Shown one piece after another: positions 6,001 to 12,000 of a stretch of 38,787 nucleotides of DNA. The DNA is from Escherichia coli (GTDB lineage Bacteria; Pseudomonadota; Gammaproteobacteria; Enterobacterales; Enterobacteriaceae), in the NCBI RefSeq assembly GCF_003334385.1, contig NZ_QOWN01000040.1; one strand, 5' to 3'. Position 1 is the stretch's first letter. Every line of letters starts with the position of its first letter. The position numbers are program-made.

Positions 6001-9000
6001 TACATTGATGAAATCATTCGCAAGGAAAAACGGCGGATACGGGATCTGGTTCTGACCATGTATCAGACGGGCAGCATTGAGGCATCAGAAGCTGCGCTCT
6101 TCATCCCGGCCGGAGAATTCCCCAAATGAAACGCGAAGGCTTCTGGCGGGATGTCACCCCGCCACTGAATATTTATGGTGTCCCGTTGCCGTTTACCATG
6201 ATTTACCTGCTGCTGTTTCCGTATCCGTCAAAAACAACATTCTGGGTGTGCAGCGGCATTCTGCTGTTTTTTGTGCTCCTGGGGTACTCAGGATGGACTG
6301 TCCGGACGCTCTGCCGGCGTCTGTACAGCCTGGTGCAGGGTAAACAGGCGTCAGGCCGTCCCTGGTGGTACCGGCATCGCACAGAATTACCCCGTGAATG
6401 GCGCGGAACGGAATAACCCTCTTTTGGTTACCATCCCGGCAGAAGAACTGAGGGTGAAAAAGACAGGCGTATATTAATGACTATGAGTCTTAACGCTGAG
6501 ATCCGTGATAATCTTCGCTTCGGTCTGGAGTCTTAAAACCGGCATCTGGTAAGAACAACGTGGGTAACACGGTGAATGCCAGCGTCCGTTACTCCTTCTG
6601 ATAAAAAACAAGGGGCCGCCCGCCGGCCCTGATATTGCGGAGACAATATGTTTTACCCTGCTGTTGACTATCTTGTGATTATTCTGCTTCTTGCCTTTCT
6701 CATGGTGACTTTATTTGCCTGTATCTTTTGTCTCAGACACGAATATATAAGAAAAGAATCAGAAAAACGAAAAAAGGACTTTTTCAAGAAAAAAGAATTG
6801 AATATCACTGAGTTTTCATGGTTCAGGTACAACCAGCATAATGAGACCGGAATTAATATTACCATGGATAAAACCATCATCGTGATGGTGGCTGTGAACG
6901 GCCGAATGTTCAGTAAAAAATACAGTATAACCTCACTTACATTTGACACAAAAAATATTACCGAAGCGGCACTATATGAAAACGGCATTGTCACCCGTAA
7001 GCTCACGCTTCATCGACCTGTCAGTGATGACAGGCCTGCAGGCGTTCCATCGAAACAGCCCATAAGAACAATCCTCCTCTGTATCAGACAAAAAGATCAC
7101 ACCGACGATATTTCTTTCATCCTCTACCAGGGACGTCTTGAACAACGAGGACATAACTACACCATAATAAAAAGCAAGGCTAATTCTGTTATCCTGTTAT
7201 TAAAAATGCTGCTGACAAACAAAATATAAACCCGCTGCTCCTGTTGTTATTCAGACGGGGGCAGAACAAAGATAATATTTCATAATTTTACCCAAAATAC
7301 TGATATTCATACCTGCTTGTTATTCTCACATTAATCTATCTTCGTTCTGTTAACTACTGCTGAACGCAAGCCGTTCTCCTTACCGGAATACGGGCAATTC
7401 TGTTCAGCCATCCGGAGCCAGCACAATGAAATCACCTTACATTACCCGGCATGCCGTCCCACATGACGCGCAACCTGAACCACACCGCATTACCCCGTGA
7501 ATGGCACGGACCAGCATCACCCTCTTTTGTTCATCATCCCGGCGTATCACAACGCCCTCATCTTTAATCCCCGGAGAACGACATGAAGTCCAGATATCGA
7601 ACCTGGCTTGCTGTCCCGCCTGAGGAGACAGAAGCCGTAAAAAATGCAGTTCCCCCGTTAAATGGCCGCAAAGCTGTCGCATGGGATCCAGAAAAAAAGC
7701 TCTGGTATGCCCGGGCGGGTACCGAACTTTCACTGCTGGAGCGCTGGTTACCCCGGCCACAGGAACTGTCGATGGATGCCGGCGATCCGGTCACTGAATT
7801 TGCTCAGGTCCTGGAAAACGCCGGGCTGGTTATTCAGGGATTGCCACAGATGGACGGAGCCATACACAGAGTGGCCACCCGGGATGACAAAAAAGGGGCC
7901 AAAAGTGGCGCATACAGGGCCTATCTTGATGGTCGTCCCGCCGGCTGGTACCGCGACTACCGGAGCGCCGATGACAGTCCCACAAACTGGGTATTTTCCG
8001 GCGGAGAACAACACGATCCTCTGGCCAGACTGCATCTGCGGGCATTCGCTCAGCAACAGCGCGATGATAACGCACGTAAACTGCAGCAACAGTATAACAA
8101 ACAGGCCGGCTATGCCCGCTCCTATATTAACGGTTTGCCACAGGCAACAGCACATGAATACCTGACGCGCAAGGGCATCCGGGCCGCGCCTGGCGTGCGG
8201 CTGAATAATAAAAATGAGCTGGTTATTCCCTTCAGCAACGGCCGGGGAGAAATACGTTCGTACCAGCGTATTCCGGTCACCGGCGGGAAGGATGCCCGCA
8301 TTCTGAAAGACTCCGAGAAAACCGGCAACTGGTTCACCTTCGGAACCCCGGAAAATGGCCGTCCCCTGTTATTTGCGGAAGGTTACGCTACTGCCGCCTC
8401 CCTGCACGAAGCAACCGGCCTTCCGGTTCTGATGACAGTTGATGCCAGCAATATGATTGCCGTGGCAGAAAATGCCCGCCAAATCTGGACTGACAGCCCC
8501 TTTGTCTTCTGTGCCGACAACGATCATCAACGGGAAATTAACAAAGGGGTTTTTAGTGCAACAAAGGCCGCAGAAGTCACGAATGGCGAAGTCATTATTC
8601 CGGCCTTTACGGAGGCGGAAAAAGCACAGGGACTGACCGATTTCAATGACCTGGACGCCAGCCGGGGACGGGACGACTTTCAGAATGCCATGAACGCACA
8701 GTTAAAACATATCGGTATCCCCACACCCAACAGTGACACTGCCGACAATCGTGAGGCTGTCGTGATCGGCAACCTGATATTCACACCGGTAAAAGATGAG
8801 AAGCCACAAATGTCCCCTGAAAACAGACAGAGCACAGCCCCGGAAACGGAGCTGGCGACACAGGATACGCCTTATGACACCCACTCCGACGATACAGAAA
8901 ACCAGGCATATGAAGATGACTATGCCGCCTATGCATCCCTGCAATCAGTAACTGCGGAGACGTTATCCCCGGATAAACCACTGGAGAATATTGCGTCTGC

Positions 9001-12000
9001 CGCTGATACCGGCACAGAGAATACCTCTGCGGCTACCGCTGGCGACCAGGAAGACCTCAATACAGACGCCACAGGTACAGACACCGCTCACAACAGCGAC
9101 ACAGCAGAAACAGGAACGCTTCCTGAACCTGCCGGGATGCAGTCCGTGCAGCAGGCAACCACTGAACCGACCGCAGAAGATAAACCACACGAGAACGTTG
9201 TTTCCGCTGCCGATACCAGAGAAGAAAATGCCTCTGCCACCACCGCTGACAACCAGAGCACGCAGGCAGAAGAACATCCCCGGAGTGAAGACACACCGGA
9301 AACCTCCCTCTCCGACGCGGCCGGGACACAGCACACCACCACAACGCAGTCTGAAGAACAAGTGCAGGTTTCCATGGCCAGCGCTGACGACTGGAGCGCA
9401 TTTGCGGAAGATCTCAACGCTGACACTCCGGGGGCCCCCACTGTTCACAACACCGACAACGCGGAGACAAACACAGTTTCTGAACCGGCCGGGATGCGGC
9501 CAGTTCAGCAGGTGACCACTGAACTGACGGCAGAAGATAAAGCACAGGAAAAGAGCGTTGCGTCTGCCGCTGAGACCGGCGCAGAGCACTCCTCTGACAT
9601 CACCGATGACAACAGGAACGCACCCGCTGAGGAGCTCAATGCCGATGCCACGGTTGCTGTTCACAACACCGGCACAGCAGAAACAGCCTCACCTTCTGAA
9701 CCTGCAGAAACTCAGCCAGTCCGGCAGGCCACCGCTGAACCGACGGCTGAAGATAAACTGCAGGAAGAGCGTCTTGTGTCCGCCACTGAGACCAGCACAG
9801 CGAATGAAGCAGCCCGCCCTGATACGCCATCGCTTTTCAGCCGTCTGCGCCGTTTTCTGACCGGTGGGAAATCACGCACCTCAGAACCTTCCGTTATTCA
9901 GGAGAAAAAGCCCACGGAGGCTGAAACAGCAACAGAGGAGGTCGCACCACCATCACCACCGGAAACCAGCCCGGAAGACACATCGTCAGCGGAACCGGAC
10001 ACGATTATCTTTGCACCCCGCCGTCCCGACAGTCCGCAGCGGCACAACCTGGACGAGATCCTTAAAAATCTTACACACAAAGAGTTTCCCGACAGGACTG
10101 CGCTCTACAGCGTTGACGGTGAACCCGCCTTCCTGGACAGACTCTACTGTCTCGAAATGGTGGATGGCGCCAGCGCGGATGACAAAAAGGTCCTGGCTGC
10201 CCTTGCTGTGGCCACCAACTTCTATGGCGGCGTTATCGAGCTGACCGGCAGTGATGCCTTTAAGCAAAAAGCCATGCAGCTGATTGTCGAATACGACATC
10301 AAGGTTCGCATGAAACTCCCGGCCCAGCGGGCAGCACTGGAAAAACTCCGAAAGGAAAAAGAGATGGCGCATGATGCCATTGTCACCCACAGACCCACGC
10401 CGGAACTCAACCGCCAGTCACCGGAAGAGACAACAATGGCCCAACCGGCTCCCCCTGTGTCACCGAAGGCAGAGGCTGAACAAACAGCAGGCAGTACGGC
10501 TGAAACACCGCATCCGGAAGCGCCGGTCACGGCAAAAGCTGAAGCCCCCCGGGCCGACAGACCGGAACAACCCGCCGCCCCGTCGTCTGCGCCAGAAAAA
10601 GCCCCTGTCAGTGCACAGCCGCAGCAACCCGACACACCGGAGGAAGAGCCGCCCGGCAAGCTCAGCCCCGGTGAAAGTGTGACTGCCGTCCTGACAAACT
10701 ACGGAGAAAAAGAGTATGCGCCCGGAAAAGGGCGCTGCTTTTTTGTGGAGCTCACCAACCGCAGTGGCAAACGGGAATACTGGGGAAACGGCCTGGAAGA
10801 ACTGGTCAAAAACCATCAGAAGGGTGACCCCGTCACACTGACACTGCAGGCGAGAGAAACATTCCGGCTGTCCGGTGAAACGCGGGATCGTATCCGTAAT
10901 ATCTGGGCCATAACCCCGGTCAGTAACGGCATTACCGTTAATAATGACCAACCTCATGCGGGTCAGCATACCCTGGAGTTTCCGATGGCAACATTCAGCC
11001 AGGTGATGTTACAGATGCAACAACACTGGCCACAGATAATGCAGGAAGTTCGCTCCCCCAAAAATCCTCCCAATAATCTGTACATTGGTGAAGACAGGCA
11101 ACCTGCATCAGCACCTCAGGATCAATCAATGCGACTCCCCCTCGCTGGTAATGCACCCAATGAACTGATACCAGCCATCGCCTCTGCCGATAAGGACAAT
11201 CGTCAGTTGAATCTTCTGCTGGTCCACAGCGCAGATGATCATCTGCAGGGCGTGGTCCGCCTGAACGGCACCCTTTACCCGGCACTGGCCACCCCGTCAG
11301 CTGACAACCGTCAGCTGGTCATCAATGCCCTGACGGATAACGGTCTGCAGTTTGCCGGTTACGGTGAAGCTGTTAACCATGATGAGAATAATCATCAGCG
11401 TCCGTCCCCACAAATAATGCAGTTTCACCTGAAGCAACAGGACTCCCCGTTGTTTGCCGCCATCCACAAACCGGAAGAGCAACCGGACAAGCTTTTCCGC
11501 TCTCTGGGTTTTGAGCAGACCTGGAAAGAGTGGTCTGACAGCCAAAAGGCGGAGGACAGGCAGGAAAAAACTCTGCAACAGGCACAATCCCACAGCCCCG
11601 GCCGATGAGCCGGTAAGGACGACCATGAACATGAAAAAAACGCTGCTGGTCATACTGACCGGCATCACCCTGGCATCACCGGTGGCAGGTGCCGCCACCT
11701 GCCGGGCGGGGGCCGCTGCCGAAGCCGGCAGCAGAGCCGCCTGGGAGCGGGCGCGCACAGCCAGCCAGGCATGGTCACAGCGGGAGAATGACGTCGCCTC
11801 CTCCCTGCAGTCCTGCCTGTCCCGCATCAAGGACATCAGTATCACTCTTCCGCAGTTCCCCAGCCTGGACAAGCTCCTCCGCGACCTGGAAAACCAGGTC
11901 TGTGATGCCGTCGTGGATCGGGTGAATGACCATCTTCCGGGGAATATCGACCCCTGGAAAGACTACAACCTCTGAACAGGAGCACCATGAGCGAAGCACA

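Follow-up and report, generated by a model that had tools for sequence, protein, structure and literature searches.

Why is the conjugation primase Sog longer in some I-complex plasmids than in others, and what is the additional length made of? The question is raised by a 38,787-nucleotide stretch of Escherichia coli DNA (NCBI RefSeq assembly GCF_003334385.1, contig NZ_QOWN01000040.1; here called the window), in which a single long open reading frame (ORF) at 7583..11608 encodes a long form, SogL, of 1341 amino acids (aa) plus stop. Coordinates below lie on the plus strand unless stated otherwise. A preliminary description, made from the bare sequence, had drawn attention to a repetitive acidic segment and a Pro-rich segment inside this gene and had asked whether such variable linkers could affect translocation.

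The sogLS genes are required for transfer of I-complex plasmids (PMC10286972; PMC4288162) and Sog is itself transferred to the recipient, as is known for R64 and ColIb-P9 (PMC6112013). Only a few proteins are known to leave the donor in bulk alongside DNA through a conjugative type IVB system, and Sog is one of them. More broadly, Toprim-LPD7 primases belong to a class of multidomain 'polyvalent proteins' that are transferred with DNA (PMC5512222). Here, we find that the repetitive segment is most probably a disordered, acidic linker between domains of Sog, built of repeats and drifting in length as units are gained and lost, with the Pro-rich segment forming a second linker.

Results

Repeats within the acidic linker

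Linker 1 (aa 404-817; 8792..10033) is polyacidic and predicted to be disordered, a description backed by its composition, its AlphaFold prediction, its failure to align with R64 and its ratio of nonsynonymous to synonymous substitution (dN/dS). Seeded direct repeats at the DNA level and diagonal scans of the protein recover three units within it: U1 (aa 464-532, 69 aa; 8972..9178), U2 (aa 533-651, 119 aa; 9179..9535) and U3 (aa 652-723, 72 aa; 9536..9751). Protein comparison adds a partial unit, U4, consisting of a head only (aa 724-745; 9752..9817), and a fragment resembling a unit tail stands before U1. A 50-aa insert lies inside U2 (aa 559-608; 9257-9406). Pairwise protein identity among U1-U3 is 55-65%. 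The DNA repeats form two sets of three copies each, one of 78 nt at 8972, 9179 and 9539 and one of 164 nt at 9049, 9406 and 9622 (73% and 62% identity), with spacings of 207/216 and 357/360 nt. The count and location given in the preliminary description, about three imperfect repeats of 80 aa at 8950..9830, thus hold up, while the period is nearer 70 aa, one unit is longer than the others and the array is bordered by partial units.

This self-similarity is far beyond what composition alone produces. The best off-diagonal match of 30 aa within linker 1 scores 107, against 42 +/- 4.8 in 200 composition-preserving shuffles (z = 13.6), whereas the corresponding linker of R64 is not repetitive (z = 0.5). 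Hidden Markov models of the unit head and tail found no match in R64 or ColIb-P9. Tandem Repeats Finder reported no array in linker 1, because the copies have diverged and are interrupted by a large indel, the insert in U2. We found no description of a repeat-type Sog linker in the searchable literature.

Comparison with R64 and ColIb-P9

SogL is 1341 aa long here and 1255 aa in both ColIb-P9 and R64, the latter length being stated in the literature (PMC6112013). The 86 additional residues relative to R64 are the sum of 64 in linker 1, 24 in linker 2 and a deficit of 2 at the N terminus, so the preliminary description was correct that this Sog is longer than R64 SogL, and the excess lies in the acidic repetitive and Pro/Ala/Glu-rich linkers. 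Measured between conserved anchors, linker 1 spans 401 aa against 337 aa in R64. A linker of equal length and without repeats in a characterized Sog would have spoken against an expansion; that of R64 proved to be non-repetitive and also shorter.

The domains around the linkers are readily aligned with R64. Identity to R64 is 75% for the primase (aa 1-405) and 67% for the central domain (aa 801-945); for the C-terminal domain (aa 1023-1341), compared over aa 1023-1290, it is 62%. The C-terminal two-thirds of the protein, with LPD7 and the C-terminal domain, is homologous to SogS of R64. Linker 1 behaves differently. Its gapped local alignment with the R64 linker scores 134, no better than chance (120 +/- 13 in shuffles), and the best ungapped 14-mer scores 34 against a shuffle mean of 36, again not significant. 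Because neither alignment is significant, we treat the two linkers as non-homologous save for short islands. Of the 77 aa in the core of linker 2, 53 can be aligned with R64.

Repeat-number polymorphism among relatives

Among the 120 closest protein clusters, Sog ranges from 1222 to 1463 aa and linker 1 from 344 to 523 aa, with two to four units in relatives, in agreement with the earlier suggestion that the linker is variable in length. Linker 2 measures 76 aa between anchors in nearly all of these clusters. The length classes can be read in terms of units. A variant of 1222 aa equals the window Sog minus exactly U2, variants of 1272 and 1284 aa are U1/U2 fusions, and variants of 1458 and 1463 aa carry one extra U2-type unit of 120 aa. 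In the variant of 1353 aa, a cluster of 4716 sequences to which the IncK plasmid pCT belongs, 12 aa of the U2 head are duplicated in tandem. The underlying 36-nt tandem duplication (beginning GAAGAAAATGCCTCTG) is present in pCT and most relatives and is single-copy in the window (9185..9256, junction after nt 9220). The range is borne out by complete plasmids, with linkers of 413 aa in pCT, 398 aa in pO111-CRL-115 and 523 aa in pPK8275.

Of 72,556 plasmid records, 444 encode a repeat-type linker, and only 3 of these 444 share the single-copy allele of the window. Incompatibility (Inc) typing, checked for five repeat-type records, returned IncI-gamma/K1 or IncK2/Z. Unit maps show junctions that stay in register across the length variants, which fits a change of length by unequal recombination or slippage between units in register.

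Composition, predicted disorder and constraint

Linker 1 is rich in Thr (15%), Ala (15%), Glu (13%), Ser (9%), Asp (8%) and Pro (8%), has a net charge of about -60 and contains few bulky hydrophobics (W, C, F, I, Y, V and L make up 6-16% of each 50-aa block). Linker 2 (aa 931-1024; 10373..10654) is a Pro/Ala/Glu-rich segment whose compositional core (aa 946-1022) has 22% Pro, 21% Ala and 16% Glu and a net charge of -9. Its bounds, set by AlphaFold, come close to the 10380..10680 first proposed for a Pro/Ala/Glu-rich stretch. In a side observation on base composition, the coding strand over both linkers (8800..10650) shows a strong A-over-T skew of 0.3-0.5 and also a C-over-G skew, which may be due to the content of Ala, Thr, Glu and Pro codons.

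An AlphaFold model was made of a 932-aa short form from an alignment of 40 sequences. Its predicted local distance difference test score (pLDDT) is below 50 over SogL aa 410-817, where the only secondary structure is a ten-residue helix at aa 751-760, and likewise below 50 and unstructured over aa 931-1024; the LPD7 and C-terminal domains reach about 90. Both linkers are accordingly predicted to be intrinsically disordered, as had been supposed.

Comparison of the window sog with three relatives, segment by segment, gave dN/dS of 0.44-0.57 in linker 1 and 0.09-0.19 in most domain comparisons; dN in linker 1 is 3-12 times that of most neighbouring domains. Because the ratio is raised yet remains below 1, constraint on linker 1 is relaxed but not absent. 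Synonymous divergence (dS) itself differs up to ten-fold between segments of sog, and the gene is therefore a recombination mosaic. Against pO111-CRL-115 (L005) and a further relative (L006), synonymous divergence from one and the same relative is as low as 0.016 in the C-terminal domain and as high as 0.21-0.40 across the primase and linker.

Short motifs inside linker 1

The few aromatic residues of linker 1 cluster in three islands, and R64 has a counterpart to each of them. Island A, AYEDDYAAYASLQ (aa 443-455; 8909..8947), corresponds to EEYENYSAYQELMN in R64, and its Y-x2-Y/F motif occurs in 8 of 31 family linkers where shuffles predict 0.67. Island B, VSMASADDWSAFAEDL (aa 596-611; 9368..9415), lies within the U2 insert and corresponds to VSVATDKDWREFEAEL; its pattern, DW-x2-F-x-[ED][ED][LM], is also found in two other family members, P0122 and P0130 (3 of 31 linkers, 0 in shuffles). 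The 1222-aa allele lacks island B, and four-unit alleles have it twice. Island C, SLFSRLRRFLT (aa 750-760; 9830..9862), is basic and amphipathic, has counterparts in R64 (SSFLDKARGFFT) and P0122, and is the sole predicted helix of linker 1 (SogS residues 342-351, block pLDDT 68). Similar islands are found in representatives with only 35-58% identity in the C-terminal module. The patterns were defined post hoc from these data, so that the P values for their enrichment are optimistic and the islands serve as leads only.

A probable internal start for SogS

SogS of R64 comprises 844 of the 1255 aa of SogL (PMC6112013), and its start is therefore R64 M412; the annotation of pESBL agrees on this start (PMC4288162). 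In a three-way alignment, R64 M412 falls on an invariant methionine, M410 here, whose ATG at 8810..8812 we assign as the in-frame start codon of a putative SogS of 932 aa. The preliminary description had left this start unplaced, and homology now supplies a position. Across 40 family members this column holds Met in 21 and Val in several, usually preceded by E-E/N-x-T. The codon is ATG or GTG in relatives, with GTG in two related plasmids. This retention of a start-type codon supports a conserved internal initiation site at ATG 8810. The Shine-Dalgarno sequence is weaker than in R64, with only GAGAAG in the window (-2.7 kcal/mol) against a GAGGA eight bases upstream in R64 (-6.1 kcal/mol). The putative SogS would have a mass of 101 kDa and an isoelectric point of 4.6, with the acidic linker making up about 400 residues at its N terminus. 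If SogS starts at M410, linker 1 is therefore also the N-terminal tail of SogS.

The acidic linker across the primase family

A search with the C-terminal 541 aa against 1.84 billion representative proteins returned 232 relatives, from which we surveyed the linkers of 29 full-length representatives (at most 50% identity) with an EGYATA-type primase. The stretch that connects the primase to the C-terminal module is net acidic in all 29 (-9 to -62), is rich in Ala, Pro, Glu and Thr, and measures 93-713 aa, although additional domains may lie within some of the longest. Repetition is significant in about 9 of the 29 linkers, whose periods (23-185 aa) are unrelated to one another. An acidic linker in every representative, repetitive in roughly a third of them, shows that expansion of the acidic linker by repeats is a recurrent habit of the family and not a peculiarity of this plasmid.

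Gene identity, domain layout and surroundings

Several lines of comparison identify the ORF as sog, the conjugation primase of the I-complex system, on an IncK/I-gamma-type plasmid. It matches an annotated coding sequence (CDS) and aligns with Sog of R64 and ColIb-P9. Its DNA is matched at 100% in three independent plasmid records, where it is annotated 'LPD7 domain-containing protein'; in NZ_CP145695 the annotated CDS is identical (100%) and has icmT/traK on one side and the traL-traM genes on the other. Many further records are 99.5-99.8% identical over aligned bases, the majority being 36 nt longer. A record with 100% identity is typed IncI-gamma/K1, MOBP and MPF_I, and has the order traJ, icmT/traK, a hypothetical gene, sog, a traL-like gene and DotI/IcmL genes. 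By comparison of annotations, this position of sog in the I-type transfer operon agrees with R64 and ColIb-P9. The original naming of the gene as sog, with 1341 aa, is borne out by its operon position, by alignment and by its primase motif.

The protein opens with a DUF5710 domain (aa 6-57; 7598..7753; PF18974, E = 2.8e-9), followed by a Toprim primase domain (aa 264-364; 8372..8674; Toprim_3, E = 7.5e-6) with the EGYATA motif at aa 266-271, invariant in the three-way alignment with R64 and ColIb-P9. Between the linkers lies a folded central domain (aa 819-930; 10037..10372; pLDDT about 90) with a Pfam match to LPD7 at aa 840-923 (PF18821, E = 3.5e-9). A beta-rich C-terminal domain (aa ~1029-1335; 10667..11587) completes the protein, and its top Foldseek matches are all OB-fold proteins that bind single-stranded DNA (ssDNA).

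Two further observations concern the ends of the gene. The last 21 aa of Sog, ...EDRQEKTL-Q---SHSPGR (11543..11605; from E1324 D1325), are nearly invariant relative to R64, whereas the rest of the C-terminal domain is 62% identical; the tail could be a C-terminal secretion signal. Upstream, between icmT/traK and sog, an ORF of 193 aa at 6648..7229 has 36-41% GC against about 55% around it. Its position is that of the nuc gene (phospholipase D family) in R64 and ColIb-P9 and of the hypothetical gene in the identical record, and a PADLOC scan of this ORF gave no match.

Discussion

We propose a model where two disordered, negatively charged spacers join the Toprim primase, the central LPD7 domain and the beta-rich C-terminal domain. 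In the IncK/I-gamma/Z lineage, linker 1 would have arisen as a unit of about 70 aa was duplicated, and its length would still be shifting by unequal recombination and slippage, yielding alleles of two to four units and 36-nt indels. Selection would act mainly on composition (acidic, rich in Ala, Thr, Pro and Glu, with few hydrophobics) and on a few short aromatic motifs, and not on exact sequence or length. The linker may serve as a flexible tether and electrostatic spacer that allows the primase and C-terminal modules to act independently on transferred ssDNA. We infer that the surplus length over R64 is nearly neutral. The repeat linker is, then, a lineage-specific form of the known Sog linker that is polymorphic in copy number, and repeat-number variation is otherwise an ordinary property of disordered linkers.

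Several observations weigh against this model or temper it. The contrast in dN/dS between linker 1 and the domains is a tendency and is not uniform; values are raised to 0.30-0.41 in a nearly identical C-terminal segment and to 0.37-0.38 in the primase in the comparisons with CP027463 and pCT. The low confidence of AlphaFold may come in part from the poor alignability of the linker. Some length variants derive from short-read assemblies, where misassembly is possible, although the main classes recur in complete plasmids. Since dN/dS stays below 1 and aromatic islands recur, linker 1 is no featureless spacer. Finally, a transposon-sequencing study of an IncI1 plasmid scored the entire sogS interval as needed for transfer, at coarse resolution (PMC4288162), and by these data the linker may matter more than near neutrality implies.

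It is tempting to speculate that linker 1 does more than tether. DotM of the Legionella type IVB coupling complex, to which R64 TrbA is distantly homologous, binds acidic Glu-rich peptides with its basic patches (PMC5802825), and for this reason the linker could help to recruit Sog for export. On this view the polyacidic repeats and the motifs Y-x-x-Y, DW-x-x-F-x-E-D/E-L and the basic amphipathic helix would form a multivalent internal signal that docks Sog on TrbA/TrbC (DotM/DotL-like), with repeat number tuning export and so setting the dose of primase. Sog is exported by the I-type system with the linker in both of its forms (PMC6112013), the acidic linker is universal in the family and the aromatic islands are conserved amid unalignable sequence, all of which would suit such a role. 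However, the Glu-rich signals of Dot/Icm substrates lie in the C-terminal ~30 residues (PMC5802825), whereas linker 1 occupies aa 404-817 of 1341 and is N-terminal in SogS. The DotM arginines that bind the peptide are poorly conserved outside Legionella (PMC5802825), and in linker 1 both Thr and Ala are more frequent than Glu. Plasmids that are otherwise similar also carry variants of two to four units, a coexistence hard to square with strong selection on dosage. We therefore regard the recruitment of Sog through a polyacidic, motif-bearing signal read by TrbA as unlikely, and an extension of it in which copy number meters the primase deserves the same caution. If true, it would be the first substrate-recognition element mapped for a conjugative type IVB system.

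The charge of the linker invites another explanation. Acidic tails of SSB and T7 gp2.5 occupy ssDNA-binding surfaces, and linker 1 could similarly be a DNA mimic or autoinhibitory tail that covers the ssDNA-binding surfaces of Sog in the donor, or a decoy for DNA-binding defence proteins of the recipient. A net charge of about -60 over some 400 residues and the OB-fold matches of the C-terminal domain would be in keeping with this, as would the proposal in the literature that Sog coats the transferred ssDNA (PMC6112013). AlphaFold, however, predicts no intramolecular contact, a segment so variable in length and sequence is hard to reconcile with precise mimicry, and the likeness to SSB and gp2.5 is a general analogy; we consider the idea improbable, more so than recruitment by TrbA. 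Least credible of all is that the repeats constitute a folded repeat domain or reflect an antisense gene or an assembly artefact. In the AlphaFold prediction, U1-U3 are without secondary structure, and the identical sequence in three independent plasmid records speaks against an artefact. There is indeed a 233-aa ORF on the minus strand at 8963..9664, within a stop-free stretch of 241 aa, but we reject it as an effect of codon composition: codon-shuffled controls average 153 +/- 38 aa and extend up to 283, and relatives have only 131-183 aa.

A disordered, repeat-built linker that drifts in length thus accounts best for the locus, and it changes how sog length is to be read. Differences among I-complex plasmids arise from gain and loss of repeats together with mosaic recombination and should not be taken for truncations or annotation errors. 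The natural alleles of two, three and four units, the three candidate motifs and the SogS start predicted by homology are resources for deletion and export experiments.

Set beside known systems, Sog of the window has the domain order of R64 and ColIb-P9 Sog, namely DUF5710, Toprim with EGYATA, acidic linker, LPD7, Pro-rich linker and C-terminal domain, and shares with them the conserved internal methionine at which SogS of R64 starts. It differs in that R64 linker 1 is without internal repeats and 64 aa shorter, and R64 linker 2 is 24 aa shorter. The nearer comparison is with IncK1, IncK2/Z and IncI-gamma plasmids, which share the repeat-type linker. Sog of pCT (NC_014477) is 99-100% identical at aligned positions in every segment and differs in length, having 1353 aa and the 36-nt duplication in the U2 head where the window has 1341 aa and one copy; further relatives of these types have two or four units.

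More distant likenesses are those of architecture. The acidic Glu-rich signals of Dot/Icm substrates are likewise low-complexity, acidic, length-variable disordered segments on secreted proteins, and SSB, a DNA-binding protein with a disordered linker and an acidic tip, can be likened to the Sog linker; in both, however, the acidic element is C-terminal, whereas in Sog it is internal, much longer and rich in Thr and Ala. Closer to Sog are Pri of the IncM plasmid pCTX-M3 and other Toprim-LPD7 primases, in which a C-terminal module comes after the primase and an internal start may yield a short form (PMC6112013). In this family the length, sequence and repeat period of the linker vary by lineage, and an acidic linker is present throughout.

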